Shown one piece after another: positions 1,454-63,776 of a stretch of 64,000 nt of DNA. Below the pieces are notes generated by a model. That model had not been told where the DNA came from. It searched no databases and worked only from the letters and a program-made list of their open reading frames with translations. A program made the position numbers and the translations under genes. Source of the DNA: Candidatus Enterousia sp. (GTDB lineage Bacteria; Pseudomonadota; Alphaproteobacteria; Rs-D84); NCBI GenBank assembly GCA_045646605.1, contig JAZRLA010000015.1, forward strand, positions 137,054 through 201,053. Direction: 5' to 3'. The first letter of the stretch is position 1, and every line of letters starts with the position of its first letter.

Positions 1454-2464
1454 TTATTCACTGATGAACATTATGACCTTATGCATCGTTGGCGCCGAAA
1501 TCTTTTCGTCGGGTGAAACCATTTGACCATAGACCTTACCCTTTGAATCTTTGCGTACAATCGCGATATTCGCAGACACAACCTCTTCAGATTTAAGGGT
1601 GCTGAAATCTTTATTGATAAAAACAGCCAAATCGCCAACATTAACATCGGCCTTGGTATCGGCAAAAATATAAGATTTTTCAGGTACAAATCCACCCAAA
1701 CGCTTGGAATTTGGTATAACCGCGTAAACACCGCGACGACCTTCAAGATTTGCCGGGGCCGCGATCATATTTGAATCCGACCTTTTGAACGATAGGTTCT
1801 TGCCATCTGGTTTGCCAAATACGGGAATCAATTTGCGACGCGCATTATCATAAAGCTTTGCACCATACAAATGCCCGTGCATTTCATCAAAATCACCCGC
1901 CGAATCCCCAGGCACCAAAACGGCCTTTACACGTTCTTGGACCTTGTTCATTTGTTTCGCTAATTCGCCAGATTTGTAAAGTTCCGCAATTTTATCAAAC
2001 AGGCTTTCGACAGAATGTGCAAAAGATTTCGCCAACGGTTCAATTTCGTTTTTATAAACCTCGCGTTGTCCGACCTCTATCTTGTGATAAACCGAAAGTG
2101 TCATACCGGCGTCCTTGGCCGCTTGGGCAATTGTTTTGCCGGATTGTTGACGTATTTTGCGTAATCCACTGCCAAATACTTTAAGTCCACCATCTTCGTT
2201 GTCGTTCATACGACGTGTGATTTCGGTTTGCCACTTGGATGCAACTTCATCAGTATCCTTGATAAAAATGTCGGACAATTTGCACCCCAATATATTGCAT
2301 ATATTCAATAATTGTTTCTGATTAAGGCGCCGCACACCCTTTTCAATCTTGGAAACGGCGGACAAAGACAAATTTGAACGACGTGCAAGTTCGGTCATTT
2401 TCATGCCCGTCGCAAGCCTTATATTACGAATATTGTTTGGAAAAATGATTTCTTCTTGGGCCAT
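1454..2464 (-). CDS. XRE-family repressor-like protein with two HTH domains and a C-terminal S24 (LexA/CI)-like domain
   Basis: Two HTH_XRE-like segments ('MTELARRSNLSLSAVSKIEKG' and 'IAQAAKDAGMTLSVYHKIEVG'). C-terminal region resembles the S24 peptidase fold ('DSNMIA'). Confidence 0.5.
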   Translation of the reverse strand: MAQEEIIFPNNIRNIRLATGMKMTELARRSNLSLSAVSKIEKGVRRLNQKQLLNICNILGCKLSDIFIKDTDEVASKWQTEITRRMNDNEDGGLKVFGSGLRKIRQQSGKTIAQAAKDAGMTLSVYHKIEVGQREVYKNEIEPLAKSFAHSVESLFDKIAELYKSGELAKQMNKVQERVKAVLVPGDSAGDFDEMHGHLYGAKLYDNARRKLIPVFGKPDGKNLSFKRSDSNMIAAPANLEGRRGVYAVIPNSKRLGGFVPEKSYIFADTKADVNVGDLAVFINKDFSTLKSEEVVSANIAIVRKDSKGKVYGQMVSPDEKISAPTMHKVIMFISE

Positions 2465-2537
2465 TTAAAGTCTCCTTGGATAAATCTTGACAAAATAATA
2501 AGGGATTTTTTAAACCATGGCAAGGAAAAAGTTTTGG

Positions 2538-2625
2538 GGTGGTTAGTGTTAGTGGCTAGTGGTTAGTAAACTCTGGAACTTATCCATAATTGTGAACAAA
2601 ATCCAAAGGTTACTAACCACTACTC
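2538..2625. repeat. palindromic repeat element A, copy with a divergent core
   Basis: Left arm GGTTAGTGTTAGTGGCTAGTGGTTAGT and right arm TACTAACCACTAC flank a CTCTGGAA...core. Overlaps the dnaB stop codon. Confidence 0.55.
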
Positions 2626-4287
2626 AAATTCATCGGGAATTTCATCGATGTCAATCGGCGTTGGGGCGTCAGTTGGCCCAGGAACCGGCGATACATCGGG
2701 TGCAAATTCAACCGTGCGACCCGCCATTTCATTAAGGTTATCGAACAAACTATATTCAGCCAAGAACGCAACCGTAACCGTATCTGTTCGACCGTGACGA
2801 TTTTTACCAATGATAATATCAGCCTTGCCCTTGGCCTTTTCAAGTCGGTTTTGCCATGAATCAACAGACTTTTCACTTGGTGTATTTGAAAGTCGCCGCG
2901 ATGGATCACGGTTTTGCAGATAATATTCTTCGCGATATGTGAACATAACAATGTCTGCATCTTGTTCAATAGAGCCCGATTCACGCAAATCGGCAAGTTG
3001 TGGCCGTTTATCATCGCGATTTTCCACACTGCGCGACAATTGTGAAAGTGCGATAACCGGAACACTAAATTCCTTGGCCATCATTTTAAGACCACGCGTG
3101 ATTTCGGATAATTCCTGAACACGATTATCACTGCGTTTACCCCCCGGCAAAGTTAGTAACTGCAAGTAATCAATAACGATAAGCGCAATTCCGTTATATT
3201 TCCGGGCAAGCCGTCGCACGCGTGTGCGAATCATCGGCAAAGACATCCCTGGGGTATCATCAATAAACAATGGAATTCGTCCGATTGCATCGGAAAATTG
3301 CGCCATTTTAAGGAAATCTTCATCAGTTAAAGAACCTTCACGCATCGCGGACGATGGAATTCGTGCCTGGGATGACAAAACACGTGCCGCCAATTCGGAT
3401 GCACCCATCTCTAAGCTGAAAAACGCAACGGCACCTTTATACTGTTCATTCGCGCGACCAGAAAAAATCGCATTTGCCGCATTAAACGCAATATTCATGG
3501 CAAGTGTGGTTTTACCCATACCCGGGCGTCCCGCGATGATAAGTAAATTTGATTTATGCAATCCACTTATTGCACGGTCCAAATCGGTAAGCCCAGTGGT
3601 CAGCCCAGAAAGTTTCCCATCGGCTTTGTACGCGATTTCTGCTTCGGCCAGTGCATCCTTTAACGCATTTGCAATTGGTACGACATCACGCGACGCATCC
3701 CCGGTCATTGCAAGATTGAATAACTTTTGTTCGGCGGATTCGATTTGTGATGATACCGGGTTATCAAGGTCTTCAACAAATGCCGCATCGGTAACGGATT
3801 GCCCAAAATCAATAAGTTCGCGCCGCACCGCATTTTCGTGAACAATTCGCCCATACTGTTCAACATTCACGACCGTTGCGCCGGCGCCAGCCAATTGAGT
3901 CAGGTATTCAACCCCACCAACCGATTCCAATGTTCCCTGTTGATCAAGGTAATTTTTTGCCGTGATTATATCAAAAGGAATTCCGGCGGCAAATTGGCGC
4001 AGGGCAAGTTTATATATTTCCTGGTGCGCGGGATGTGAAAAATCTTCGGGTCGCAGAAATTCGGAAATTTTTTCCAATGCGCGATTTTTCATCAAAACCG
4101 CGGCAAGGACGGCCTGTTCGGCCTCTAAATTAGTCGGTAAAGTTTTGGGAGTAAAGTCCATGCCAAACATAGTATACGAAAAAAATGTTTTTTCAACGCC
4201 TTTTTTATCGGGATATGCGGAACTTAAAATTCCAATAGTCGACAAAGATGGAACCGCGGCATGGCCGGCGGTTTTTCCCATAGACAA
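2620..4287 (-). CDS. dnaB: replicative DNA helicase DnaB
   Basis: DnaB N-terminal domain followed by RecA-like core with 'GRPGMGKTTLA' Walker A and 'IVIDYLQLL'. True start may be the internal 'MFGMDF'. Acidic C-terminal tail. Confidence 0.85.
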   Translation of the reverse strand: MSMGKTAGHAAVPSLSTIGILSSAYPDKKGVEKTFFSYTMFGMDFTPKTLPTNLEAEQAVLAAVLMKNRALEKISEFLRPEDFSHPAHQEIYKLALRQFAAGIPFDIITAKNYLDQQGTLESVGGVEYLTQLAGAGATVVNVEQYGRIVHENAVRRELIDFGQSVTDAAFVEDLDNPVSSQIESAEQKLFNLAMTGDASRDVVPIANALKDALAEAEIAYKADGKLSGLTTGLTDLDRAISGLHKSNLLIIAGRPGMGKTTLAMNIAFNAANAIFSGRANEQYKGAVAFFSLEMGASELAARVLSSQARIPSSAMREGSLTDEDFLKMAQFSDAIGRIPLFIDDTPGMSLPMIRTRVRRLARKYNGIALIVIDYLQLLTLPGGKRSDNRVQELSEITRGLKMMAKEFSVPVIALSQLSRSVENRDDKRPQLADLRESGSIEQDADIVMFTYREEYYLQNRDPSRRLSNTPSEKSVDSWQNRLEKAKGKADIIIGKNRHGRTDTVTVAFLAEYSLFDNLNEMAGRTVEFAPDVSPVPGPTDAPTPIDIDEIPDEFE

Positions 4288-5008
4288 AATAGAAAAAATT
4301 CGTAAAACGGTCGGAGAAAGGTATTTTTCAGCACAAATGATGTTGCAATTTGTTGCGCCTGATAAAATACGCCTCGATCCGGGTGGTATAAAGTTTTATG
4401 ATACTGACTTTGATCCGCACAGTTGCCGAATTGGTGATACACCAATAACTGGGGCAACAATTTATTGGGACCCATCGGGCGGTCGACGAAATTCTGATAA
4501 CAGTGTTTGTGTCATTATTTATCGCGATGACCGAACGCACCGGGTTTTTATCCACGATATAATTTATATCGTTGTCCCAGACGCAATTCAATATCCGCTT
4601 GCCTATCAATGTGAAAAAGTTCTTGGGTTTGTGCGTGCGCATCGGCAAAGGGCGCTCTGTCTTGAAACAAATGGAATCGGTGCGGCATTGCCGGAAATAA
4701 TGCGCGAAACAATTTCACGCGCTGGTTACGAAATACAAATACGTCCAATAACCAACAGCCGTCGCAAAGAAGACAGAATTTTGGACGCGATTGAACCATT
4801 GCTTACGACCGGACGTTTTTACGCAAATCGACGTATAACCCAGACACCATTTATATCAGAAATGTTGGCATGGACCCCGATTGGCAGTTCCGAACATGAT
4901 GACGGATTGGACGCAGTCGCGGGTGCAATTTTATGTTCGGCCACACCGATGCGGCCGATTGGAACAAATGTTCACAATTACATTGCGAACACAGATTTTA
5001 AACTTTAA
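4160..5008 (+). CDS. terminase large subunit, C-terminal nuclease fragment
   Basis: Continues the terminase after the about 3.4-kb opposite-strand insertion. The six-frame ORF 3962-5008 has a spurious N-terminal extension that overlaps dnaB antisense. Confidence 0.5.
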   Translation: MPNIVYEKNVFSTPFLSGYAELKIPIVDKDGTAAWPAVFPIDKIEKIRKTVGERYFSAQMMLQFVAPDKIRLDPGGIKFYDTDFDPHSCRIGDTPITGATIYWDPSGGRRNSDNSVCVIIYRDDRTHRVFIHDIIYIVVPDAIQYPLAYQCEKVLGFVRAHRQRALCLETNGIGAALPEIMRETISRAGYEIQIRPITNSRRKEDRILDAIEPLLTTGRFYANRRITQTPFISEMLAWTPIGSSEHDDGLDAVAGAILCSATPMRPIGTNVHNYIANTDFKL

Positions 5009-5023
5009 CCAAAAGGAAAGAAA

Positions 5024-6250
5024 ATGAAATATGACTTACAAAAAATGTATTCACGTGCATTAAACCTGCGCGAACCATGGCTGAAACGCTGGTCGGATGC
5101 GCGCCGTTATACAATGCCAACAACCGATGAAGAAATCGCGACATTGTTTGATGGAACGGCGGCGGATGCGGCGGACAATCTTTCGGCATGTATGTATTCA
5201 TTGCTAACGCCACCGGAATCATTGTGGTTGAACCTTGTCCCTGAATCCGAAGAATCACCGGACCCGGTTGCGGCAACTATGGCATTACGTTCGAATCTTA
5301 ATGAATCTAACTTTTATACAACTGTTCATCAATGTTATATGGATTTGGTAACAATGGGAACGGCGTGTTTGTTTATGTCTGAATCACCAATTGGTGCGGC
5401 AAGTGCATTTAACTTTACGGCAATCCCGATGACGGACATCGCGATTTTGCCGAATGCGGTATTTCATACTGCAACCGTTACCGCCCAAGATGTCGCGCGC
5501 CGTTATCCTGAATGGACGCCACCACGTGCAATCGTTGACGCAATAAAGCAAAATCCTGAATATCAATTACGCCTGGTCCAGGCATTAATTGATACCGAAT
5601 TCACTGCATGGATAGATGCGGGTGGCAATATTGAAAACAATATTGTTGCGACCGGCACATTCGAAACAAACCCATACATCATATTCCGTTGGGCGTTGGC
5701 GAGTGGCGAACTTTACGGTCGCGGTCCAATTCTGCGTGCATTACCCGATATCAAAACTGCAAATAAAGTTGTAGAATTGGTCCTTAAAAATGCGACAATC
5801 GCGGTCAGTGGTATATGGCAAGCCGATGATGACGGGGTCATAAACCTTAGTAACATCAATTTAACACCTGGTGCAATAATTCCCAAAGCGGTGGGCAGCA
5901 CCGGCCTAACGCCACTTGCGACGGGCGCGAACTTTGATGTGTCACAGATAATTTTGAAAGACCTGCGTGAACGCATCCGCCACACAATGCTTGCGGACAG
6001 AATCGGCACGCTTTCGGACAAAGAAATGACCGCAACGGAAATACTTGCGCGGAACGCGGACATGCTGCGCATATTGGGCGCGACATATGGACGATTGCTG
6101 CACGAATTTATCCGCCCGCTTTGCGACCGCGGACTTCAAATTTTGGCGCGGCGCGGCGTAATCGACAAAATATCACTGCACAGTGATGCGGAATTAAAAT
6201 ACATCGCACCGATTGCACAAATGGTCGCGGAAAACGGCACATTGATATAG
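5024..6250 (+). CDS. phage portal (head-to-tail connector) protein
   Basis: 408-aa ORF directly downstream of the terminase with an RBS. Synteny and overall portal-like composition support the call. Confidence 0.5.
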   Translation: MKYDLQKMYSRALNLREPWLKRWSDARRYTMPTTDEEIATLFDGTAADAADNLSACMYSLLTPPESLWLNLVPESEESPDPVAATMALRSNLNESNFYTTVHQCYMDLVTMGTACLFMSESPIGAASAFNFTAIPMTDIAILPNAVFHTATVTAQDVARRYPEWTPPRAIVDAIKQNPEYQLRLVQALIDTEFTAWIDAGGNIENNIVATGTFETNPYIIFRWALASGELYGRGPILRALPDIKTANKVVELVLKNATIAVSGIWQADDDGVINLSNINLTPGAIIPKAVGSTGLTPLATGANFDVSQIILKDLRERIRHTMLADRIGTLSDKEMTATEILARNADMLRILGATYGRLLHEFIRPLCDRGLQILARRGVIDKISLHSDAELKYIAPIAQMVAENGTLI

Positions 6251-6259
6251 GGGGCGCGC

Positions 6260-6466
6260 ATGGAAAAAATCGCACACGAATACGCCCGCACTTTTGCAGG
6301 GCCGTCCGGTCGGGCGGTCATTGACCACCTGCGCCGGATAACAATCGAAAGGGTGTTGGGGCCGCACGCAACGGACGCAGAATTGCGAACGCTGGAGGGT
6401 GCGCGCGCAATCGTGCATCAAATTGAAACACTAATTGAACGGGGACGGAACAATGCCAAAATCTAA
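6260..6466 (+). CDS. hypothetical small protein in the phage-like cluster
   Basis: 68-aa ORF placed where GTA/phage head clusters carry a small ORF after the portal. Confidence 0.25.
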   Translation: MEKIAHEYARTFAGPSGRAVIDHLRRITIERVLGPHATDAELRTLEGARAIVHQIETLIERGRNNAKI

Positions 6467-6710
6467 TGGATTCGCAAACATCATCGACACATTGCGCAGT
6501 GGTTGGTTCCTTATCGCGTTTATTGCCGGCATGATATATTGGGTCGCGCGCCAAGATAACGCCCTGGTCGAACTTGACCGATTGACGACACGCATAACGA
6601 CACTTGAAAACCGGACAACGATTTTGGAAACCGGAATAGGGCAATTACAACTAAAAATCGACGGCATCAAAGAAGACCTGACCATCATCAAAACAGCGGT
6701 GATAAAGTAG
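6435..6710 (+). CDS. small membrane protein with coiled coil (holin-like or unknown)
   Basis: One TM helix ('WFLIAFIAGMIYWV') followed by a heptad-like region. Confidence 0.3.
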   Translation: MNGDGTMPKSNGFANIIDTLRSGWFLIAFIAGMIYWVARQDNALVELDRLTTRITTLENRTTILETGIGQLQLKIDGIKEDLTIIKTAVIK

Positions 6711-6726
6711 TGTTAGTGGTAAGTGT

Positions 6727-6814
6727 AAGTGGTTAGTATACTCTGGAATAATTTCGCAATTACGGATTGATTCCAGAAGACGACTAACCACTAGAAAGCG
6801 TTTTTTGAATTTAA
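6727..6814. repeat. palindromic repeat element A (canonical copy)
   Basis: Arms GTGTTAGTGGTAAGTGTAAGTGGTTAGT and ACTAACCACTAG flank the palindromic core TTCTGGAATAATTTCGCAATTACGGATTGATTCCAGAA. Confidence 0.7.
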
Positions 6815-6835
6815 TTTGAAAAATTTAACAACATA

Positions 6836-6864
6836 TTGACAATGTGTGTTTTCTGTGCTATTAT
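6836..6864 (+). promoter_or_regulatory. near-consensus sigma70 promoter for the 6897 gene
   Basis: TTGACA, 17-nt spacer, TATTAT. An AAAGAG RBS precedes the ATG at 6897. Confidence 0.5.
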
Positions 6865-6896
6865 ATGGTCGTACAACAAAATAAAAAGAGTAAAAC

Positions 6897-8183
6897 ATGA
6901 CAGAATTAAATAAAAAATTCGGCTTTACAGAAGAACAGTTAGAACAGTTTGATGACGATCTTAGAAATGGCGGAAGAGACGGTAGAAGAGCACAAATACC
7001 CAAAGAGGTTTTGGCGATACTGGGTGATTATTACGTGCAATTGATTGAAAAATCCGTTCAGGCGACCGAAAAAGGTATGTCACACGAGGATGACATAGCT
7101 TCAGTAAGTCACCCTTTGTGCCATATTTACGAAGATGGTTTGATGGCCAATGAATTATATCGCCCGATTGGTGATATTTTGTTAGATAAATTGATTGAAA
7201 AGGCCGAACAGGGGTATTACAGCCATGCAAATCGTTCAATAGATGGTTATTGGCGCAGTGTGAAAGATAATAAAGATGCCCAGAAAGGATTGAAAACGAT
7301 ATTAGAAAAACATCCTAACTATGCATTTGGGCAGAAATATTTATCATACATGAATGGTGCCAGTCCCGAAGACGAAATGGCGATGATACAAAGTTATATT
7401 GAAAACCCAGATATGTATTTTGTTACCACAATTATGGTCGATATTGATGGCACACTTATTCGAAACGGTAAAGCCAATGATAATTTGATAGATTCAATTA
7501 TTGGTCGTAAAAATATCGCCATTTATACGGGTGGGGACCCCGTGAGCCAAAAGAAAGTTCTTGTAAAGGCAATCGCAGAAAAAATTTTGGAAAAATTCCC
7601 TTTGATAAAGGAAGATTTTTCTGTGGATACTATTGTAAATATTTATTCCCAAGATAATGAACAGAATATAGCATTGCGTGAGAAGTTATCACGCACACTA
7701 AGAGACAAAATCTGGGGTTTGTTTTTCAACCAAGAACCTGGCAATAAAGTTGATGCCCATATGATAGATGATATGGCGAACCGGGCTAAACGTATTTTGG
7801 AATTTCTAAATCGTTTAACGGCAACAGGTGGTGATCAGATTAAAATTTATCCAAAACAGGCATTCGCGCAGGAAAATATTTGTTTGGCCGACACTGTGAT
7901 TGATGATACCCAACCAGCCGCCCAGGGAATGAAAAGTCTTTATTCAGCGTGTCTGACCCCAGGTGAATCCCCGTTTTGGGTGAAAGAGATCAGGGGTGTC
8001 GAAAGGGGAATATCCAAAGAACGCGAAATAACGGCAGAGCAAGCTTTTGCTATGTATCAGCAAAAATGTAAAGAAAACATGATTGCGGGCGCTAAACAAG
8101 TTGATAAGCTAAGTGCTACCGAACAGAAAGCAACGGCTTTTTCTGATTCGTGTAAAACCGATGTTAAAAAAACTACTAGATAG
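6897..8183 (+). CDS. hypothetical protein with a central HAD-like phosphatase motif
   Basis: 'FVTTIMVDIDGTLI' matches HAD motif I (hhhhDxDGTL). Large flanking regions are unknown. Bracketed by A elements. Confidence 0.45.
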   Translation: MTELNKKFGFTEEQLEQFDDDLRNGGRDGRRAQIPKEVLAILGDYYVQLIEKSVQATEKGMSHEDDIASVSHPLCHIYEDGLMANELYRPIGDILLDKLIEKAEQGYYSHANRSIDGYWRSVKDNKDAQKGLKTILEKHPNYAFGQKYLSYMNGASPEDEMAMIQSYIENPDMYFVTTIMVDIDGTLIRNGKANDNLIDSIIGRKNIAIYTGGDPVSQKKVLVKAIAEKILEKFPLIKEDFSVDTIVNIYSQDNEQNIALREKLSRTLRDKIWGLFFNQEPGNKVDAHMIDDMANRAKRILEFLNRLTATGGDQIKIYPKQAFAQENICLADTVIDDTQPAAQGMKSLYSACLTPGESPFWVKEIRGVERGISKEREITAEQAFAMYQQKCKENMIAGAKQVDKLSATEQKATAFSDSCKTDVKKTTR

Positions 8184-8196
8184 TACGAAACCAGAA

Positions 8197-8371
8197 TAGT
8201 GGGTAGTGTAAGTGATTAGTGTTAGTGCGGGCGCGTTTGCGCCCGTTTTTGCGACACCCCGGCCTGCGGCCACCCCTCTAGCCAGATGGGAACTTTGCTT
8301 TCTGGAATAATTTCACAATCACGGATTGATTCCAGAAACTACTAACCACTTCCCACTAACACTAACCACTA
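8197..8371. repeat. palindromic repeat element A with embedded hairpin and element B
   Basis: Contains the A arms and core, the hairpin GCGGGCGCGTTTGCGCCCG, and a B copy at about 8253-8295 (GACACCCCGGCCTGCGGCCACCCCTCTAGCCAGATGGGAACTT). Confidence 0.7.
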
Positions 8372-8710
8372 AAACGCATTTTTCGTCCAATCTATGTGCC
8401 ATCCGTGGACGATAATAACATCAAACCGCGCGTCACCACACCAACGCCGCTGCAGCAAAAATGTTTCCGCCGCCAATCGCAGCCGCCTTTGTTGCGCGGA
8501 CGTAATCGCACCCCACGCCGCCATCACATTTTTGCGCTTTTTTACTTCGACAAAGATAATAAGTTTTCCGCGTTTTGCAATTATATCAATCTCTGCGCGC
8601 CCCGTATTTCGCCCGGTCGTATAACGCCGATGCAAAATCCGAAATCCATGCAATACCAAAAAAGCGCATGCAAAAAATTCTGAAAAAATTCCGGTCTTGT
8701 ATGAATCCAT
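8369..8710 (-). CDS. yraN: YraN-family (UPF0102) endonuclease
   Basis: 113 aa with 'GRAEIDIIAKRGKLIIFVEVKKRK', typical of YraN. Confidence 0.65.
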   Translation of the reverse strand: MDSYKTGIFSEFFACAFLVLHGFRILHRRYTTGRNTGRAEIDIIAKRGKLIIFVEVKKRKNVMAAWGAITSAQQRRLRLAAETFLLQRRWCGDARFDVIIVHGWHIDWTKNAF

Positions 8711-8712
8711 AT

Positions 8713-9513
8713 CTAAAACGCATAGGGTTCGGCGGCAAAATTATCCTGTGATTGCTGGACATTAAGGGCGCTATCCTCCGCATGCTTGCCACAGTCAATC
8801 AATTCCAATTCCCCCGAATACGCCGTCATCATTGGGTCGAACGAATTATCTGAACTTGCCCACCGCGTTGCGCCCGCATTCGGCACGCCATATTTATCAA
8901 CAACATTTTGCCACCAATACATAGTTTTTTTGTCGCGTTGATTTTCAAACTTTTCCGCATCGCCTTCCATTTCATCGGTGTCGTTATGATAGACGATTTT
9001 CCACACGACATTATCGGTTGCGTTGCTTGTAAAGAACACATCAATTGTTTCGCCCGTGACACCGCGCACCAGGTGCAATTCCGCCGCATACAATACGCCA
9101 CGATTCCGCGCAAGTGAATTTATACATTTTTCCAATGCCGCCGGCGCATAAATTTTCATCCGTCGACATTCGTAATCAAGGTTATATTTCCAATCGGGGT
9201 GCATCGAATACACAACACTATTTTTTGGTCGTTCGGCATAAAGGCCATCGGCGGCCACAATAAATTTAACCGCATCAAAATCCATCCCCAGCATGATACC
9301 CGCAATATCAAAATCCGCAACCGGCGATACCGCCGCACCGGCGTTTAGTGACACGGTATCCAAACTGCACTCAATATCACCCGTGTCCGGCGTTTCGATA
9401 TAGTAATCATCAAAATTGATATTATCGTCTGCCAAAACATCATCAAACTCGTCCGCGCGCGCGCCGACCGATAACAAACAAACAAAAATTCCAACAATAA
9501 TTTTTTTCATCAC
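8713..9513 (-). CDS. secreted protein, possibly outer-membrane associated
   Basis: Signal peptide 'MMKKIIVGIFVCLLSVGARA'. C-terminal residue is aromatic ('...EPYAF'). Confidence 0.4.
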   Translation of the reverse strand: MMKKIIVGIFVCLLSVGARADEFDDVLADDNINFDDYYIETPDTGDIECSLDTVSLNAGAAVSPVADFDIAGIMLGMDFDAVKFIVAADGLYAERPKNSVVYSMHPDWKYNLDYECRRMKIYAPAALEKCINSLARNRGVLYAAELHLVRGVTGETIDVFFTSNATDNVVWKIVYHNDTDEMEGDAEKFENQRDKKTMYWWQNVVDKYGVPNAGATRWASSDNSFDPMMTAYSGELELIDCGKHAEDSALNVQQSQDNFAAEPYAF

Positions 9514-23162: not shown

Positions 23163-26100
23163 ATGCCGACGAATGAAAAATTAAACGAAAATACCAAGAT
23201 TTATGACAAAAATGTTGCCCGTTTTGCTAAGCGAATTGCCGCGGCTTATGGTGACGCCAAGGTTCGTCTTTTGGCTTCGCGCGATGTTCGTCGTGCGGTC
23301 CTTTTGCGCGATATTGATGCCATAAATAATGTTATTGCCAAGGTTCCACAAATGTCGGCGGGACTACGTTTGGATTTTTGCGATGCCTTTGTTGGTGAAG
23401 ATATGTCGGGACTGGATTTAGCCACACCGGCAATTTTGGCGGATGCGTATCGCGCCATTTCCGCGCGTGTCAAAGAAGGGGATGCAAAACAGCAAGAACG
23501 TCTTGATAAAATTGCGGCGCGTATCGACGATTTATCCGCGGATTTTGCAAATTCTGGCGGCATGGTGGTAAGCCAAAATGAATGGCCATTGGTTGATATG
23601 TCGAATATTGCCAATATTTATGAAGGTTTCGGCAATATGCTTGATGCACGTATCGTGGATGTGGACGTGGATAAAAATCCAGAAAAAGTCGCAGAAATGC
23701 AGGCAAACAAAAAACAGATAGAAACGGTTGTTTCGGATTATGATGGGTCTTGGGGGCTTGGAAAGTTGCGCGCCGAAGATGCACCAAAATTGGCGGACCG
23801 TTGGGACGAAATTTATGCCATGTTGAACCGTGCAAAAATCTTTGATGAAACCAAGGAAAAAACCGCAAAATGTAAGTTTTTGGATGCCCGTGGTAATATT
23901 ATTCCGCAGTTCAAGTCTAATAAACGTGGCGACACGAAAAGATATGAAGAATACGATGTTGGGTTCGATATTGCCAAAGATGGTCGACTTGCATCCATTG
24001 TTGAACTTGCGCGTCATAATGTCGCAAAAAGACACGTTGCAAATTTTGATGACAAAATCGATGAAGATACGCTTGAATCTGAATTAAACGAAGAAATTTT
24101 GAGTGTTTTATATGAGGTTTACGCCGCAGACCAAGTTGCCCAGGATGCAACCAAAACCCCAGAACAATTTTCTGACCCTGAATTTCGTGCGGAATTTATG
24201 ACCGCCCTTAATGAAATGGGTAAAGAAATTTCAGATAATGGATATAACGTCGCAATTGAAACACAAACCGATGCAACCGTTGGGTGGGCAGCGCGTATTA
24301 AAAGCAAATTAGGTGCGGCGACCAAGAAACTCGATGGATTGTGGACGCGTGCTAATCGGCCACTTGATAGAATTGATGATATGGCGGATGTTCGTATGTC
24401 GCGCGGGGCGGTTGCGCGTCGTAAAAAACGTCGTGAATTTTGTTGGCGTATTTTAAAGGGTTTTAACAGTTCGTTTATCGTAAGTGCGCTTATTACGGTG
24501 ATTGCAGCCGCGGCGGCGGCAAGGTTGGGCGTGTCACTTGCGTCGGGACTTGCCATGATTGGCGGCGGCCTTGCGCTTGGGATGATTGGTTTCCAAGTTG
24601 CGCGTTGGATTAAAAATCAAAAAAAGAATAATTTACCGGTCAGTTTAGAGGAGTTTTTCAAGGATAAACAGTTGGTACGTTCAATTGTGACCAGTGCGCT
24701 TGCAATTGCGGCCATGGGACTTGGTGCGGCTGGATTGGGTGCCGCCGCAATGACCGTTGGTGTTGGTGCGGCGTTACTTGGCGCATACAATAATGGACGC
24801 GGTGTATTCGAAGCGGCGCGTGATGTTAAAATGTCGCACCGTCAAAGAATCGCATGGGCGATTGCGAATGCCGGATCGGTCATTGCGGGTGCGCTTGGCG
24901 GCGGTTATGTTGGACGCGGATTGGTCAGTATGTTTAACCGTTTGTATCCGGGTAACACATTTTTCCAAAATAAAGAAACAGTTGAAGGACCAAAGCGCAA
25001 GGTTTCTGACGAAATCACGCACGAAAGGACAACCAGACATTATACAGATGATATGTTAAGAAGCGCCAAGGATGCCGTGGAAGATTGGTACGCGCACGAT
25101 TATCCAAATCATCCGGAAATATTGCAACAGGATATTGATGCCGTAAATCAGTACAATGCGGACCATGATACCAACCTTGATCCATATCGTATATTGCGCG
25201 CAATGAAAACATCGCAACCATCACGTTTGGTATATACCGAGGGTTGGACCAATGCACATAACATTTCCCAAGAAACAATTGCTCAGGCCGCAAATGCGGT
25301 TGGTGGTGGAACCTATAATCCCGCGGGCATAGAATCCGCACGTTTGATAGATGCAAATATGGGTACCCAAGGCGAAGTGGGCCCGGTTGGGGATTTTACA
25401 AATAAAACCTATTCACCGATTACGGAATTACCAACCGACAAAATCGAAACCGTTGTTGATCAACCGGCGGTTTACGAGCAAACATATAACGATACATACA
25501 AACCTGTTGATGTAAAGCCTGGATATGGCGCATTCGGAAATTACACGCCACGTGAACGCATTAATGATCGTATTGCTTCTTTCCTTGATCGTGTGCGTCG
25601 TGGTCGGCGTGCGGAATCAAAACCGACGTTGGAACCAAAACCGACATATGTTCCGCCAATTACCAGCATAAAAGAACCCGCAGACAAAAAATTACAAGGT
25701 TTTGAATCGGATACAAAAGATAAAAAGCCGACATATGTTCCGCCAATTACCCACATAAAAGAACATGCAGACAAAAAATTACCGGATATATCACTTGATC
25801 GTGTGTTTCCGAAACCGGCTTTTGACGATACCGAAGGGCACCTGCGTCGCATACGTGATGCATACCGGGATTTAAAAACCCAAGATGTACCTGTGGCCCC
25901 CGAAAAAACGGACGTCGCACCAAAACGTACGTCTGTTTTGGCGGTGACATACGCGCGTGCAAAAAAATGGGACGAATTGCATGACAAATTGGACGAAGTC
26001 AGGAATAAAATAATGAATTCTGCGCTTGGTGCGGCAAAAAGTGCGGAACTTAGGGCCCAAGAAAAGAATATTATCCACAAAATAGAACATTTATATAATT

Positions 26101-28262
26101 ATTTTGGACGGCCGTCTATGGATGAACTTGGCGCTGCACTTGCCAATGCGTATCGCCGTGAATATGTATATCATATGCGTGCAAAACCCGATGAAAAACA
26201 TTCTTCGCACAAGACGGTTCGTGATTGGAATGAAAAACACGAACGTTTGTTGAAAAAAATGGAATTGTATGGTTGGGATGAACCTTTGGACGGCGAAAAT
26301 CTTGATTTTGCCGCTCCAGTTATGGGCGTTCAGGCGCAAAAACAGGTTGTTCGTGGCCAAAAATATGAACAAGAACGTTTGCAACGTGAAGAGGCCGAAC
26401 AACAGAAAGTAAAAAATTTACGTTTGCCGGTCTTGATGTACAGACCTGAAAAAAAGAAAAATAGAAGATTTCATAAACCCTTTGAACAGGAAAAACCCAT
26501 AATTTTGGCGGACCTTGGGACGGCACTTGAAAATGTCCAGGCAAAGGATGGACAACAAGTTGGTGATAGAAAATATTTTGTTCCAGATGCCCTTAGAAAT
26601 TTGGCCGGAAACAAAAATTTGTTCACAGAACCGCTGATTGAAATACGCGGTGTGCCGGTTAACCTTATCGATTTAACGGGGCAGAATAACCCAATTACAC
26701 AAAGTGAAAATCGCGTAATGGTTATGGTAGATGTTGATGGATTGCGGATGCCGTTCTTCCTTGCCAATGGCGATGAAAAGTTTGAAAATATTAAACCCGG
26801 GAAATGGTATCCGGCATTCGATTTATCGCGTGACGGTTCGTGGCGTTTTTGGAAAACGGCGGAATACCTTGATTCGAAAAGAGGTGAAACATCCGAGAAA
26901 ATTGATGAGATATCCAAAACATTGAACGAAGTTATTGGTGATATAAGGAATTACAGGGATACCAAGGCAACAACCGAAAATGAAATACGCGGATTTGATG
27001 GTTTTGTCGGCGGTGTGGACGCCTTTGACCGTGTTGATCCCGATATCATAGTAAATATGACCGAACATCAACCAAATGATTTGGGCAAATATATGTATTG
27101 GTTAAGTTTGGGGGACAAAATGACGGGTGCGTATGTGCCATATATAAAATGGTATTTTGAAAATATTAAATCACCCGATTATGCCCCAGAAGAAAAAAAT
27201 TGGCTTGATGAAATAATTGAAAAACATCAGGACACCGTGCAAAACGTCAAGAGCACCGCCAAGAACGTCGTGCAAAACGTCAAGAGCACCGCCAAGAACG
27301 TTGTGCAAAACGTCAAGAACACTGTCCAGGAACGTCGTGAAAAACGTCAAGAACGCCGCCAAGAACGTCGCGAAAACCGTTCCGGCATTATATCAAATGC
27401 GGATGTCGAAAACGTGTTACCCGGGGACATGATGCTACCGGTTTCTGAACCTGTTCAAAAACCGATTGAAAAACACATTGATGAACCAAAGCCGGTTGAG
27501 CCGGTGGTTGCGCAAAACGGCCTTGGAACGGTGCTTGAAACCGCAATTTACAAAAATGAACACGACACTGGTGGTGAACACAAAGTGCCCGAATCTTTGA
27601 TCGATTTGGCACGTCGGCCGGATATTTTTTCCACGCCAATTACGACCATACGTGGTGTACCGGTGAAATTGGTTGATATCACGGGACACAATAACCCATT
27701 CACCCAAAGTGAAAATCGCGCAATGGTTATTGTCGATGTTAATGGCCAACGTTTACCATTTTACCTTGCCAATGGGAACGAACGTGGTGTGACGGGGGTC
27801 GCGGGTGTTTGGCGACCGGTTTTGACCCTTGATCGTACCGGCCGGTGGTATATAAATTCAAATGATCATGTTGATTCCAAAGAGTTAAATACGATCATCA
27901 ACGCGTTGAATGAACACATCGGCGACATACGGAATTACAGGGATAAAACGGCCACACATACACGAATGGAAATAACAGGGGACAAGGAAAATTTTGTTGG
28001 TGGTGTTGATGCCATTGACCAGGTTGATCCAAACAAAATCTTGGATATCATAAGGGCGGGCAACACAACCAATGATGATGACATTATATGGTGGCCTTAT
28101 GGTGGGGGTGCATCGTGGCATGCAAAACCGGGTGCCGTTGCAAAGTTTTTACGTGGGGTAGAATCGCCCGATTATCGCCGATCAAGAGGTTTTCTGGAAA
28201 AGTTAGAGGAAGGATTAGGCCGGCGGTTTAAACGGTTTAATAGGGATAAAAAATACGAATAA
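23163..28262 (+). CDS. giant (1699 aa) multi-domain membrane protein with duplicated C-terminal domains
   Basis: Continuous ORF. TM cluster at about aa 430-590. Tandem repeats at protein and DNA level. Two paralogous modules of about 170 aa. Confidence 0.6.
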   Translation: MPTNEKLNENTKIYDKNVARFAKRIAAAYGDAKVRLLASRDVRRAVLLRDIDAINNVIAKVPQMSAGLRLDFCDAFVGEDMSGLDLATPAILADAYRAISARVKEGDAKQQERLDKIAARIDDLSADFANSGGMVVSQNEWPLVDMSNIANIYEGFGNMLDARIVDVDVDKNPEKVAEMQANKKQIETVVSDYDGSWGLGKLRAEDAPKLADRWDEIYAMLNRAKIFDETKEKTAKCKFLDARGNIIPQFKSNKRGDTKRYEEYDVGFDIAKDGRLASIVELARHNVAKRHVANFDDKIDEDTLESELNEEILSVLYEVYAADQVAQDATKTPEQFSDPEFRAEFMTALNEMGKEISDNGYNVAIETQTDATVGWAARIKSKLGAATKKLDGLWTRANRPLDRIDDMADVRMSRGAVARRKKRREFCWRILKGFNSSFIVSALITVIAAAAAARLGVSLASGLAMIGGGLALGMIGFQVARWIKNQKKNNLPVSLEEFFKDKQLVRSIVTSALAIAAMGLGAAGLGAAAMTVGVGAALLGAYNNGRGVFEAARDVKMSHRQRIAWAIANAGSVIAGALGGGYVGRGLVSMFNRLYPGNTFFQNKETVEGPKRKVSDEITHERTTRHYTDDMLRSAKDAVEDWYAHDYPNHPEILQQDIDAVNQYNADHDTNLDPYRILRAMKTSQPSRLVYTEGWTNAHNISQETIAQAANAVGGGTYNPAGIESARLIDANMGTQGEVGPVGDFTNKTYSPITELPTDKIETVVDQPAVYEQTYNDTYKPVDVKPGYGAFGNYTPRERINDRIASFLDRVRRGRRAESKPTLEPKPTYVPPITSIKEPADKKLQGFESDTKDKKPTYVPPITHIKEHADKKLPDISLDRVFPKPAFDDTEGHLRRIRDAYRDLKTQDVPVAPEKTDVAPKRTSVLAVTYARAKKWDELHDKLDEVRNKIMNSALGAAKSAELRAQEKNIIHKIEHLYNYFGRPSMDELGAALANAYRREYVYHMRAKPDEKHSSHKTVRDWNEKHERLLKKMELYGWDEPLDGENLDFAAPVMGVQAQKQVVRGQKYEQERLQREEAEQQKVKNLRLPVLMYRPEKKKNRRFHKPFEQEKPIILADLGTALENVQAKDGQQVGDRKYFVPDALRNLAGNKNLFTEPLIEIRGVPVNLIDLTGQNNPITQSENRVMVMVDVDGLRMPFFLANGDEKFENIKPGKWYPAFDLSRDGSWRFWKTAEYLDSKRGETSEKIDEISKTLNEVIGDIRNYRDTKATTENEIRGFDGFVGGVDAFDRVDPDIIVNMTEHQPNDLGKYMYWLSLGDKMTGAYVPYIKWYFENIKSPDYAPEEKNWLDEIIEKHQDTVQNVKSTAKNVVQNVKSTAKNVVQNVKNTVQERREKRQERRQERRENRSGIISNADVENVLPGDMMLPVSEPVQKPIEKHIDEPKPVEPVVAQNGLGTVLETAIYKNEHDTGGEHKVPESLIDLARRPDIFSTPITTIRGVPVKLVDITGHNNPFTQSENRAMVIVDVNGQRLPFYLANGNERGVTGVAGVWRPVLTLDRTGRWYINSNDHVDSKELNTIINALNEHIGDIRNYRDKTATHTRMEITGDKENFVGGVDAIDQVDPNKILDIIRAGNTTNDDDIIWWPYGGGASWHAKPGAVAKFLRGVESPDYRRSRGFLEKLEEGLGRRFKRFNRDKKYE

Positions 28263-28292
28263 AAATATGGGGCCCCGCCCCATATTTTTTGT
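28262..28292. terminator. bidirectional terminator (perfect palindrome)
   Basis: AAAAATATGGGGCCCCGCCCCATATTTTTT. Confidence 0.6.
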
Positions 28293-28296
28293 TCGT

Positions 28297-28340
28297 GGTT
28301 ACCCCACTAACCACTAACACTTGCACTAACCACTTTTTTA
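28297..28340. repeat. partial element A (right-arm CACTAACCAC repeats only)
   Basis: GGTTACCCCACTAACCACTAACACTTGCACTAACCAC. Confidence 0.5.
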
Positions 28341-34240: not shown

Positions 34241-34765
34241 AATAAAAATCCTTTGTTTATAATTAAACTAAATTGAGTTGAAAAAACATAATAGGTATAG
34301 AAAGTACTGGCTGTGACTACAGCCACCAAACGAAAGAACAAAATGCAACTTGCGTGTTCATACCGTGAATTATAATGTATTTTATTTGAAAAGTCAATGC
34401 ATAGACATGATTAGCGCACCCAGAAGGGTTTGCTCGCACGACACTGAGTGTCGGCTGCGCGCAACCCGTGACGATTTCGCTGCACTCCGTTTGCAAAATC
34501 TACTTGGTTTCGACCCCTTCGTTGCTTCGCAACTCTGTCGGGTTCGCATCCCTGTTGTTCCAACAGTAAAAATAAAAACATCGCGCAAGGCGATGTTTTC
34601 ATTTTTATCCTGGCGCACCCATTCATTCCCCTTGATAAACAATAAATAAAATTAAAAAATTTACTTGCATAAATTTTTAAAATTTTACTAATTGTTCATC
34701 TGCGTATTGTGTGCTGCGCCGATACAGGGCTCGCACACATCCTTCTGGGTGCATTGTCCCAAAAA

Positions 34766-34792
34766 TTAAAAACCGACCATAAACGGTCGGTT
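34766..34792. terminator. terminator hairpin downstream of tRNA-Arg
   Basis: AAAACCGACC-ATAAAC-GGTCGGTTTT. Confidence 0.6.
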
Positions 34793-34801
34793 TTGAATTT
34801 C

Positions 34802-34878
34802 TGGCGCACCCAGAAGGATTCGAACCCTCAGTCTTCTGATCCGTAGTCAGACGCTTTATCCAGTTGAGCTATGGGTGC
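34802..34878 (-). tRNA. tRNA-Arg (ACG)
   Basis: Reverse complement folds as a cloverleaf. Anticodon loop CTACGGA. CCA encoded. Confidence 0.9.
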
Positions 34879-34927
34879 AACGCGTATTATTTTATACCAA
34901 AATATCCCGATTGCAAGAAAAAAGATT

Positions 34928-35854
34928 TCACATCTCCTCCAACCGCCGGATTCTTTCCTTAATCGGTGGGTGGGTCGCCATAATTTCACCGAAAAACGCG
35001 CGCGCCCGTGTTGGGTTTGCGATGCATATTGCCGCCATTGTCTTGCGACCATCAAGGTTTTTAACAACCGAATGTTCCGAAATTTTGCGCAGCGCCGCCG
35101 CGAGTGCCCGCGGATTCCGCGTTATATACGCGCCCGTCGCGTCCGCCGCATATTCACGCCGCCGCGAAATCGCCATGCGTAAAATCGGCGTGACAACGAC
35201 ATTAAAAATCGTAAACGCCAACCAGACCATCATTATCACCGCCGCACCATTGCTTTTATCGTTATCGCGCGGACGTGCATACATCATATTCCGCGCCAAC
35301 ATATCCGCAATAAAGACCGTAACGCCAATGCCGGTTATGATAAACATATCAAGACGTATATCGCGGTTGCCAATGTGTGCCATTTCGTGGGCGATGACAC
35401 CTTCCAATTCCGGTCGGTCCAATTTTTCAATAATCCCACGCGTCAGCGCAACCGTCGCATCACGTGGCGCGCGGCCCGTTGCGAATGCGTTAAGGCCGGC
35501 GTCTTCGATAATATAAACGCGTGGTGTGGGCAACCCGGCGGCGATTGCGACATTTTCCACTGATTTGTAAACATAGCGATAATCTGGGTCGGTGTCGTTT
35601 ATCTGCTTTGCGCCCGCCACGGAAAGCATCATCGAATCCCCAAACGCCCACGATATCAGCATCCAAATGGCGCACACAACAACCGTCGGCACCGCCACCA
35701 TCGTCGTCGTATTTATCGCATCAACCGGCGGTTGCACACACCAAACACACAGAAACACAATTGCGATAAAAATAATTGGAAACATCATCACCAACACCGC
35801 GGTCTTTATATTATTCGCGCGTATATGGTCATAAACAGTTTTAACTTTTTTCAT
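34928..35854 (-). CDS. htpX: M48 zinc protease HtpX
   Basis: 'HEMAHIGNRD' HExxH motif and TM helices. Confidence 0.8.
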   Translation of the reverse strand: MKKVKTVYDHIRANNIKTAVLVMMFPIIFIAIVFLCVWCVQPPVDAINTTTMVAVPTVVVCAIWMLISWAFGDSMMLSVAGAKQINDTDPDYRYVYKSVENVAIAAGLPTPRVYIIEDAGLNAFATGRAPRDATVALTRGIIEKLDRPELEGVIAHEMAHIGNRDIRLDMFIITGIGVTVFIADMLARNMMYARPRDNDKSNGAAVIMMVWLAFTIFNVVVTPILRMAISRRREYAADATGAYITRNPRALAAALRKISEHSVVKNLDGRKTMAAICIANPTRARAFFGEIMATHPPIKERIRRLEEM

Positions 35855-35940
35855 ATCCTAATCATACCGAAATATATCGGCACAATTCAATAAAAATTTC
35901 ACTAACCACCAACCACTAAATATGATAAAATACATACATA

Positions 35941-36786: not shown

Positions 36787-37060
36787 GGTAAATGTTACTA
36801 AATTCTATGGCAAGATTATCGTAACGTTGCGACAATTTCCAGAACGACGTCATACCGCCGAAGGGCGGTATCCAGTTTTTGCGAATGCAAAAACTTGCGT
36901 CGCAGACATTTATGTTTTTCATCGCAAAGCGATGAAAAATCCCTTGCGGGGCAAGTCATCGCTATCGCAATGCCTGGGCACCACGCTTCCGCGGTGTGAC
37001 GATTCACTGGAATTTTAGTAACCTGTTTCAATTGTGCATTAACAAAAATTTACAAATTAC

Positions 37061-45921: not shown

Positions 45922-45963
45922 TTCTCCTCCTGTGGAGGAGTACGGCGAAGCCGGGAGGTGGTC
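45920..45963. repeat. solo element B (double-hairpin) immediately after the tgt stop
   Basis: AGTTCTCCTCCTGTGGAGGAGTACGGCGAAGCCGGGAGGTGGTC. Confidence 0.6.
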
Positions 45964-58285: not shown

Positions 58286-58432
58286 TGGATAGTGGCTAGT
58301 GTAAGTGGGTAGTGTAAGTGAACCACACCCCGGCCTTCGGCCACCCCTCTCTAGAGGGGAACTTTATATTCTGGAATAAATTCGCAATTACAAACTAATT
58401 CCAGAACTCACTAACCACTAACACTAATCACT
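58286..58432. repeat. palindromic repeat element A with embedded element B
   Basis: Contains the A arms and core. B copy at 58322-58364 (ACCACACCCCGGCCTTCGGCCACCCCTCTCTAGAGGGGAACTT). Confidence 0.7.
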
Positions 58433-58494
58433 TTTCTCTGGACATTGAAATTTAATTTCTATACAATAAACACGCAAAACAAAAAGGAAGGAAA

Positions 58495-59532: not shown

Positions 59533-59652
59533 AAAAAACTCCTTTTGTTGATGTATAAATTATACCGAAAAATAGCAAAAAAATCAACCACGATAAACAA
59601 ATTATCACTAACACTTACACCAAAAAGTCCTGCACTTGCAGGACTTTTTTTT

Positions 59653-63563: not shown

Positions 63564-63776
63564 CCGATTTTTGTTATCGCGCGCACATCGGGCCCCGCGA
63601 AATTTGAAAAATTTTGTGGGTGATACGGGCGCACGATTAAAAAAATCGAGTGCCGCGCCGTCATCCCGCGCTTGATGCGGGATCTCGTGGTTTCAACTGT
63701 GACGCGGGGATACCGCCCTTCGGCGGTATGACGGTGGCAACAAACATCAAACATCGCCAAAGGGGGTGAATAGTTT

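Follow-up and report, generated by a model that had tools for sequence, protein, structure and literature searches.

Element A and its copies in the window

Element A, as we call it here, is a family of non-coding palindromic repeats of roughly 90-290 bp that lie against gene ends; the window is the whole stretch of 64,000 nucleotides analyzed here. An nhmmer profile built solely from copies in other genomes found four core-bearing copies in the window with E=1e-13 to 4e-20 (matches at 2544-2631, 6714-6795, 8296-8364 and 58365-58432). The copies, the parts nested in them and the remnants are as follows (no strand is assigned):

2538-2622: element A copy 1; left arm 2538-2567, diverged core 2572-2608, right arm 2612-2622
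6708-6794: element A copy 2; left arm 6708-6737, core 6742-6777, short right arm 6783-6794
8197-8371: element A copy 3, composite; left arm 8197-8227, core 8301-8336, right arm 8341-8371
8227-8251: intrinsic terminator, nested in copy 3
8254-8295: B module, nested in copy 3
28295-28335: collapsed copy without core, GTGGTTA fused to five CACT(A/T)-type right-arm units; marginal nhmmer match
35900-35919: solo right-arm remnant (CACTAACCACCAACCACTAA) in the divergent region of the M48 and M23 peptidase genes
58283-58433: element A copy 4, composite; left arm 58283-58320, core 58370-58405, right arm 58409-58433
58321-58364: B module, nested in copy 4
59606-59621: weak arm remnant (CACTAACACTTACACC) adjoining an intrinsic terminator; 2-3 units only, could be chance

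The original prediction was of at least six full or partial copies that share one core. The family is real and far exceeds chance expectation, but the core is present in only four copies, and the stretches at 28297-28340 and 35900-35921 hold arms and no core. The core consensus proposed at that time is matched within three mismatches only at 6741-6778 and 8300-8337 (and in none of 100 shuffles); the core of copy 4 is more diverged than these two, and that of copy 1 is strongly diverged and in the opposite orientation. Similarly, the copy placed at 6727-6814 exists, but its true span is 6708-6794, and ORF 6435-6710 ends with the TAG of the copy's first unit. The nested B element expected in two copies was found in both composite ones.

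Copy 1 is located between the dnaB stop and the promoter of an HTH gene (nhmmer E=3e-15). It has orthologues in the related loci L113 and L046, and the L037 dnaB site retains a collapsed remnant in which, as at 28295-28335 in the window, the outer left unit is fused to outer right units. Copy 2 gave the strongest match (E=4e-20), copy 4 has an orthologous copy in L061, and a solo arm like that at 35900-35919 is retained as a solo arm in L056, L020 and L095.

Architecture and distribution of the family

Full copies share a conserved 36-bp palindromic core, TCTGGAAT-20 nt-ATTCCAGA, where the 20-nt interior is A/T-rich, palindromic in itself and has TAATTA at its center. The core is flanked by inverted AGTGGTTAGT units, giving the conserved module AGTGGTTAGT-N4-TCTGGAAT-20-nt interior-ATTCCAGA-N4-ACTAACCACT, and then by variable tandem units of 7/6 nt (TAGTGGT/TAGTGT). 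Read from the outside to the center, the element consists of a left arm of (N)TA(G/A)GTG units, a 4-nt spacer, the stem TCTGGAAT and the interior; from the center outward, ATTCCAGA is followed by a spacer and then by the CACT(A/T)A(C) units that make up the right arm. The arm units, most commonly TAGTGT and TAGTGGT, alternate between 7 and 6 nt with a period of ~13 nt (transitions 7→6, n=126; 6→7, n=121; 6→6, n=41; 7→7, n=37). The outer arrays vary in length from 2 to more than 10 units, while the conserved inverted repeats (AGTGGTTAGT-N4-TCTGGAAT) are internal. Seven arrays of three or more units were counted in the 64-kb window, compared to 0.02 per shuffle. GTAG is found at most 14 nt 5' of the stem in 47 of 136 listed flanks, on both sides and within GGTTAGTAG, and thus does not form a one-sided tag.

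One genome per species was scanned with the pattern TTCCAGA-N3-5-ACTAACCACT, which gave at least 116 loci, of which about 75 among those listed have arm arrays. Gathering loci with an element-derived pattern biases the set towards conserved copies. The AGTGGTTAGT-N4-TCTGGAAT arrangement is however also present on the element side that the pattern leaves free, and the conservation of inner unit and stem is therefore real and not a search artefact. Among the matches listed, those with arrays belong to Candidatus Enterousia and to rumen/gut MAGs named 'Alphaproteobacteria bacterium RGIG...' and 'uncultured proteobacterium RUG...', with half an element in a Peribacteria MAG as the single exception; the other matches listed (e.g. 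Polaribacter) are chance matches inside coding sequence that have no structured element. In addition to the four cores in the window there are at least 68 more 36-bp cores in related loci, several listed loci are syntenic with the window at 80-90% identity, which places the window in this group (order Rs-D84), and L011 carries two copies with identical 34-nt cores and near-identical flanking arm sequence. Copies beyond the window are thus abundant in related genomes, where orthologous sites both with and without element A were found.

Three IMG/VR contigs with element A were considered as a sign of phage origin; they are orthologues of the dnaB/HTH/portal region of the window and give no phage-borne evidence. 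A literature search with strings of the arm sequence returned chance primer matches only, and the Enterousia literature found by name yielded nothing on repeats (a text search of one paper for 'repeat' was empty).

Element A and the stop codons of neighboring genes

At four window genes the outermost arm unit is the stop codon:

2620-2622, minus strand: CTA, the TAG stop of dnaB
6708-6710, plus strand: TAG stop of the small ORF 6435-6710
8369-8371, minus strand: CTA, the TAG stop of the UPF0102 gene
58283-58285, plus strand: TAG stop of rnj

It had been suggested that the small ORF and rnj end next to the element and that the dnaB-adjacent copy overlaps the stop. The contact is closer than that in the first two cases, as the TAG codons themselves are the outermost arm units, and in the third CTA is indeed the last arm unit. 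The UPF0102 gene was absent from the earlier description. For the giant gene, which was said to end 0-5 nt from an element, this did not hold, since its TAA (28260-28262) is followed by an ordinary G+C-rich terminator hairpin (28263-28291) and the arm of the collapsed copy starts from ~28295-28305.

The position of stops was then scored for 172 arms from the window and related loci among the matches listed. An incoming open frame of at least 80 codons is faced by 119 of these arms, and 110 of the 119 frames end within the arm or no more than 30 nt ahead of it: the stop is the first arm unit itself (38), inside the arm (28), 1-3 nt upstream (4) or 4-30 nt upstream (40). Only 9 frames end farther upstream or past the arm. 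TAG is the stop codon for 85 of the 119 listed arms, compared to a background of TAA 33, TAG 15 and TGA 6 for long frames in the window. Read from outside inward, the arms place TAG or TAA in two or three frames, and stops in all three frames were found in 99 of the 172 listed arms; for shuffled arms the share is 10%, and for random genomic segments of equal length it is 1%. Element A was never seen inside an ORF among the matches listed.

The 58 listed full elements sit at 30 convergent, 15 tandem and 2 divergent junctions, with 11 unclassified. The convergent share of the classifiable elements (30/47, 64%) far exceeds the background of the same sequences, which is 23% convergent, 61% tandem and 16% divergent (binomial p about 3e-9). 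Position relative to stops is therefore strongly non-random among the listed arms and elements.

Folding and transcript ends

The excess of convergent junctions and the few divergent ones also suit another explanation, in which element A is a host-selected bidirectional transcript-end element (terminator, insulator or 3' stabilizer) that is repeated due to its function and not to mobility. The predicted hairpins of the window copies are stable, ranging from -26 to -67 kcal/mol with z from -2.2 to -7.8 (copy 1, -37 kcal/mol and z=-7.8 on the minus strand; copy 2, z=-3.8 on the plus and -6.0 on the minus strand; copy 4, -67 kcal/mol and z=-7.4 on the minus strand). Furthermore, 41 of the 58 listed elements have no other terminator-like hairpin nearby, and in the window promoter-like sites for the next gene directly follow two tandem-context copies at 2538-2622 (2523-2495, minus strand) and 6708-6794 (6836-6864). 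The strong sequence conservation of core stem and inner unit between species might just as well reflect a host function.

Other observations argue against such a function. A T-run after the arm (at least 6 T in 8 nt) is seen in only 6 of the 58 listed full elements; the other 52 have none, and the stems are A/T-rich. The G+C-rich stem and T/U tract of an intrinsic terminator are thus mostly absent from element A, and the proposal that it acts as a terminator is not supported for the canonical type. A separate canonical terminator is nested between the arms in 13 of the 58 listed elements, where it would be redundant if element A itself terminated transcription, and lies just outside in 7. In 15 tandem contexts the differences between sense and antisense folding energy scatter around zero with no bias, and the better-folding strand is independent of the direction of the flanking genes. 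The arms of one element pair no better with each other than with the arms of other elements, beyond the family consensus, and given this lack of co-adaptation, selection for a long hairpin is shown at most for the core and inner unit. At least one listed copy is found between cistrons that are ~17 nt apart in a relative without the element, with an RBS-like GGAG directly downstream, and the precise presence/absence and interior swapping described below fit a dispensable element. We therefore regard a host-selected transcript-end element as unlikely, although a role as a non-canonical 3' hairpin is possible and would be consistent with the promoter-like sites after the two copies.

Precise gain and loss, and exchange of interiors

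Flank-anchored comparison gave filled and empty orthologous sites at five loci. The best-resolved site is the stop of the M48 peptidase gene (window 34928-35854, minus strand), which is empty in the window and L148 and filled in L144, L095, L136, L056 and L020; L136, L144 and L148 were added by a metagenome scan with the conserved left flank. On the gene strand the window gene ends with ...ATG TGA AATC, and L020, L056 and L095 end with ...ATG [TAGTGG...element...CACTAA] TGAAATC or close variants. The insertion point is precisely behind ATG, the last sense codon, and ahead of the stop, leaving the C-terminus unchanged with TAG for TGA. The earlier idea that the element targets gene ends is in line with this site, whereas in other filled/empty pairs the element follows a terminator or separates two cistrons.

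Within the M48 gene (900 nt compared) the empty L148 and the filled L144 are 93% identical, each of them matches the filled clade of L020, L056, L095 and L136 at about 83%, and the window gene is 86-88% identical to all six relatives. Because an empty and a filled site occur in such close relatives, sequence comparison indicates at least two precise gain/loss events at the same nucleotide, and this is so whichever state, filled or empty, is ancestral. The interior of the element behaves differently from its surroundings. L144 has a 44-nt core identical to that of L095 and L056 despite 83% flank identity, and its flanks are of L148-type right up to the element junctions; L136 has L095-type outer arms but the L020 core variant and B module. 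These patterns show that interiors are replaced or converted independently of the surrounding DNA. Together with split elements, the exchanged interiors support the suggestion that the copies are hot spots for recombination and insertion.

No clean target-site duplication was found in six filled/empty comparisons. At the M48 site an eroded repeat of 0-3 bp is possible, where 2-3 bp (CA/CAT) fits L020 and L056 but not L095 and L144, and three other pairs each have about 16-20 nt in the empty allele that the filled allele lacks. Pfam searches of ~25 of the roughly 58 window ORFs revealed no transposase, RAYT or integrase, and the translated cargo ORFs from three split-element sites, judged by eye, did not look like transposases. 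A RAYT-like candidate between paired copies of element A in several species proved by translation to be uracil-DNA glycosylase (GQDPYH motif). Thus, of the predicted REP- or MITE-like nature, the interspersed palindromes tied to gene ends hold, while a MITE in the strict sense is at best weakly supported, as no unambiguous duplication and, among the ORFs checked, no autonomous partner were found.

Genes carried between copies of element A

Copies of element A can harbor nested B hairpins, GC-rich hairpins, intrinsic terminators and entire orphan genes. In the window a gene is placed between copies 2 and 3:

6836-8183, plus strand: cargo between two copies of element A, comprising a promoter (6836-6864) and a 428-aa orphan gene (6897-8183)

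This gene was earlier described as HAD-like and bracketed by two copies. The bracketing is correct; the gene has a DIDGT motif and no Pfam match. The promoter is sigma-70-like with 11/12 matches.

What lies between the small ORF and the UPF0102 gene differs from relative to relative. L080 has a single complete element A with both stops in its arms and no cargo, and the window has element A, the promoter, the gene and a second element A with terminator and B module. L017 carries the 428-aa gene of the window at 80% identity (its left end is not covered), and L037 and L113 carry other orphan genes. In the window, L037 and L113 the cargo is bounded by element A sequence at both ends. The junctions are found after the first right-arm unit (window), inside the core (L037) and directly after the core beside B (L113), and at another locus, L047, cargo is present within the left arm.

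Such variable cargo, size polymorphisms of 0.4-1.7 kb at several other sites of element A, and an imperfect palindrome positioned right after stops, as attC sites are, could point to an attC-like site of an integron-like cassette system, where the step from a single element to element-gene-element would be site-specific capture. We find this highly improbable. The differing junctions, at varying points in arms or core, are evidence against a site-specific attC-like crossover, and hence against taking the recombination site proposed earlier as a site-specific one; they favor recombination via the repeated arms or insertions tolerated in dispensable DNA. In addition, GTTAGTG misfits GTTRRRY at positions 6-7, and the order of the GTT/AAC boxes is reversed relative to RYYYAAC...GTTRRRY. 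The cargo brings a strong promoter of its own, the neighbors of most copies are housekeeping genes (dnaB, rnj, ung, M48 peptidase), and no cassette arrays and no integrase were seen among the window ORFs examined. Membership of the attC class was rejected because of the consensus, the varying junctions and the cargo promoter.

The B module and the polarity of the core

The B module has the form (A/G)ACCAC(A)CCCC, hairpin 1, A, CCCCTCY-N4-RGAGGGG, AACTT, and hairpin 1 stays paired although at least 8 different stem sequences occur; its loop is often TTCG. In 20 of 27 strict matches B is separated from the core of element A by a fixed 5-nt spacer. Outside element A, B modules are present in the window at:

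42983-43023
43030-43070
43438-43476
44132-44172
44539-44577
45919-45959

In queA (42882-44813) B occurs as inverted pairs around DUF559 endonuclease coding sequence, in frame and twice. The gene is uninterrupted in L107, and L144 has the same first insert and a short B-only insert at the second site, where the frame stays open. The pairs around DUF559 show that B is the end, or terminal repeat, of a separate mobile element, and this B-ended element uses element A as one of its landing sites. TGGAA(T/C) motifs were found near the points of B insertion in queA and uvrB.

The cores are not symmetric in their mismatches. Transition mismatches are polarized (G:T-only or A:C-only) in 32 of 56 listed cores versus 18 expected, and when B is set 5' of the core, A:C outnumber G:T mismatches in 11 of 13 informative cores. 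Polarity within the core and relative to B together indicate that one strand of the core is preferred, which would fit an intermediate of single-stranded DNA or RNA, and also descent from asymmetric master copies. A bias of the polarized cores with respect to the replication strand was considered and rejected, as both orientations occur in one contig (L036); the GC skew of the window gave no pointer either way.

If the hairpin of one strand matters, element A (with B) could act as or code for a structured RNA (small RNA gene or cis-regulator), or else be an array of binding sites for an oligomeric protein that recognizes (U/T)AG units. The consistent polarity and the preserved pairing of B hairpin 1 are the observations in its favor, but polarity can also result from shared ancestry of core subfamilies or from single-stranded DNA intermediates, and the better-folding strand does not track flanking gene direction. 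Moreover, Rfam gave four tRNAs only at the gathering threshold for the whole window and no match even at E<=1 for 2300-8600, and no promoter-like site was found within the three copies of element A in 2300-8800. We thus consider an RNA or binding-array function very unlikely.

Comparison with known repeats

Element A resembles REP, BIME, GTAG-REP and REPIN sequences, which are high-copy imperfect palindromes of ~20-40 bp, with its 36-bp core, its extragenic position crowded at gene 3' ends, its mosaic structure with other motifs, its role as an insertion hot spot and its proposed 3' hairpin role. Its termini often donate a TAG stop, and in the part of Di Nocera et al. (2013, PMC3733652) that concerns GTAG-REP termini these are likewise described as often giving TAG to flanking ORFs. 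It differs from REPs in lacking a strict unpaired GTAG or CGTC tag at one end, in being symmetric with long variable arms of tandem units, which REPs do not have, and in its A/T-rich stems, those of REPs being G+C-rich; furthermore, there is no RAYT gene among the window ORFs scanned.

Similarly to MITEs (Correia/NEMIS, RUP, CIR, Nezha), element A is small, non-coding and palindromic, shows presence/absence polymorphism between relatives, has stops in all frames, is mostly intergenic and can alter neighboring C-termini. Stops in all frames are ascribed to Correia, CIR and RUP elements, and are called common in small bacterial repeats, in the relevant part of Delihas (2008, PMC2229807). Unlike MITEs it seems to have no defined terminal inverted repeats at fixed ends, as its ends are fuzzy tandem arrays whose length changes by gain or loss of units; nor is there a clear target-site duplication, or a related autonomous insertion sequence in the ORFs checked.

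Rickettsia palindromic elements (RPE) also proliferate in reduced alphaproteobacterial genomes, and the nested B resembles them, as within queA it is translated in frame. Element A itself, with arms full of stops, does not permit read-through and has no sequence similarity to RPEs. With attC sites and Vibrio cholerae repeats it shares an imperfect palindrome right after ORFs, a bracketed gene and a variable locus; it lacks the attC core/inverse-core consensus and order, its junctions vary, its cargo has its own promoter, and the window ORFs examined include no integrase and no cassette array. In common with an intrinsic bidirectional terminator it forms a stable hairpin between convergent genes, but its stem is A/T-rich, long and imperfect, and true G+C-rich terminators are often nested in it or adjacent to it.

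Origin and significance of element A

Our preferred reading, which we hold to be probable, is that element A is a lineage-specific mosaic repeat of the REP/BIME/MITE class in Rs-D84 / Candidatus Enterousia that is kept at gene ends. It would have been spread and homogenized by transposition and/or by arm-mediated recombination and gene conversion, and it would survive only where it is harmless, with the stop-rich arms making overlap with last codons tolerable. The Rs-D84 / Enterousia genomes are mostly <1 Mb and about 90% coding (PMC12306168), and in such a genome the harmless sites would therefore be gene ends. Once resident, element A may become a landing pad for further insertions, because it is one of the few dispensable stretches of DNA. 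Possibly, its long transcript hairpin has a secondary role as a 3'-end barrier or stabilizer, as proposed for REPs.

A further and rather doubtful idea is that the core of element A is the cleavage or homing site of the DUF559 (Vsr-like PD-(D/E)XK) endonuclease of the B-bounded element. The fixed B-core junction, the B-relative polarity of the core, the swapping that is uncoupled from the flanks and the TGGAA(T/C) motifs are what this may rest on. If true, breaks at cores would be mended from other copies, giving core swapping, and would lead to B being copied 5 nt from the stem and orphan genes being moved between sites of element A. The two modules together would then form an integrase-free, endonuclease-driven system of cassette exchange, with gene flux into genomes of <1 Mb.

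On our preferred reading of a mosaic repeat kept at gene ends, element A is a new family with a new architecture in an uncultured lineage and not a new principle, because the literature on REPs and MITEs already describes repeats at 3' ends, TAG stops provided by the repeat and stop codons in every frame. Rs-D84 / Enterousia genomes are <1 Mb and yet keep several nested families of palindromic repeats, and element A illustrates how a repeat can persist in a streamlined genome, by occupying the zero-length space between convergent genes and bringing its own stops. It would thereby also be an entry point for hairpin modules, terminators and orphan surface-protein-like genes without damage to genes. 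For annotation this means that the repeat defines many stop codons and C-termini in these MAGs, and that it marks strain-variable loci and is a likely cause of assembly breaks.

Endonuclease inserts and B modules in host genes

Two in-frame interruptions were found in QueA, each consisting of a DUF559 (Vsr-like PD-(D/E)XK) endonuclease domain of ~165 aa. Both are bounded at the two ends by inverted copies of the B module, a hairpin repeat that occurs nested in the palindromic element A and also outside it, and here the B modules are themselves translated.

42882-44813: queA, with inserts at ~42983-43476 and 44132-44577

Among the comparison loci (L numbers, from other genomes or metagenomes and mostly Rs-D84-type relatives), L107 has queA without interruption. 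L144 has kept the first insert, its second site holds a short insert made up of B alone, and the frame is still open. Most of the nearest DUF559 homologues stand alone as proteins of 127-185 aa. In queA the insert has the look of a mobile endonuclease cassette, RPE-like or of the homing type, that is tolerated within the enzyme.

Related DUF559 elements were also observed at host-gene 3' ends, namely at uvrB (L124-L127), where the element duplicates the last 13 nt of the gene, TTATTGGTGGAAT, and at L136 5183-6070, a tandem double insertion in which ~48 nt of the host-gene end are duplicated. By this duplication the C-terminus of the host ORF is preserved. The ends of the L136 element belong to a different hairpin family, CCCCTTCAC...GTGAAGGGG.

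A solo B module was found at the end of tgt.

45919-45959: solo B module, beginning at the tgt TAG stop (GGT TAG TTCTCCTCC...)

Since it starts at the stop codon and has GGTCTTTTTG as its 3' end, this module may be the terminator of tgt.

Element A between co-oriented genes and a half copy in an outlier MAG

Where element A lies between co-oriented genes (L009 4579-4600, and past the right arm in L012, L078 and L081), the sequence from the arm to the next start reads AAGTGAACGGAGTGAACGAT-ATG, and this stretch, which looks derived from the A arm, provides a GGAG ribosome-binding site before the start codon. In L032, a relative without the A element, an unrelated 17-nt spacer carries its own ribosome-binding site.

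The left arm and left half-stem of A, …GGTTAGTTGATCTGGAAAG, were also detected in a Candidatus Peribacteria MAG of the CPR phylum (L082 4557-4600), which could be explained by contig mis-binning or by horizontal transfer.

Possible integration remnants, a phage-like block and gene-internal repeats

Repeated partial copies of the tRNA-Arg 3' end (CTGGCGCACCC...), each paired with a terminator-like hairpin, lie in the stretch 34400-34880, upstream of tRNA-Arg, and they are more numerous in L056 (3640-4230) than in the window. The partial copies resemble serial att-site remnants of integrated elements.

34802-34878, minus strand: tRNA-Arg

A block of phage-like genes shows synteny with four or more related MAGs (~85% identity), and its orthologous contigs L117, L120 and L121 are classed as viral in IMG/VR. 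The block could represent a prophage remnant that has been conserved, or else a phage module that a reduced genome has domesticated.

1454-6250: HTH (Cro/C1-type) gene, DnaB, T7-like terminase fragment and T7-like portal
3962-5008: T7-like terminase RNaseH-domain fragment
5024-6250: T7-like portal

Repeats were also seen inside the 1699-aa giant gene (23163-28262), which in addition to a tandem array has longer internal repeats ~1 kb apart.

27226-27380: tandem array, ~33-nt unit in four copies

Other hairpin modules and their mosaic combination

A further short hairpin repeat, CGTCATACCGCCGAAGGGCGGTATCC, is present in two 26-nt copies that are perfectly complementary and 27 kb apart, and in L074 a related copy adjoins an A element.

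36848-36873 and 63708-63733: short hairpin repeat CGTCATACCGCCGAAGGGCGGTATCC

In relatives, the A arms also contain or adjoin other G+C-rich hairpin modules, of which there are at least two, CCCGTCGCGGCACGCCGCGCCGCGGTCGTGACGG and ...CCAGGGCAAAGCCCTGG....

L012 5830-5870, L045, L056 4365-4400, L004 and L049; L020 4385-4445, L095 2060-2130, L104 and L110: two groups of sites of the further G+C-rich modules

The lineage has a full repertoire of small modules, combined in mosaic fashion.
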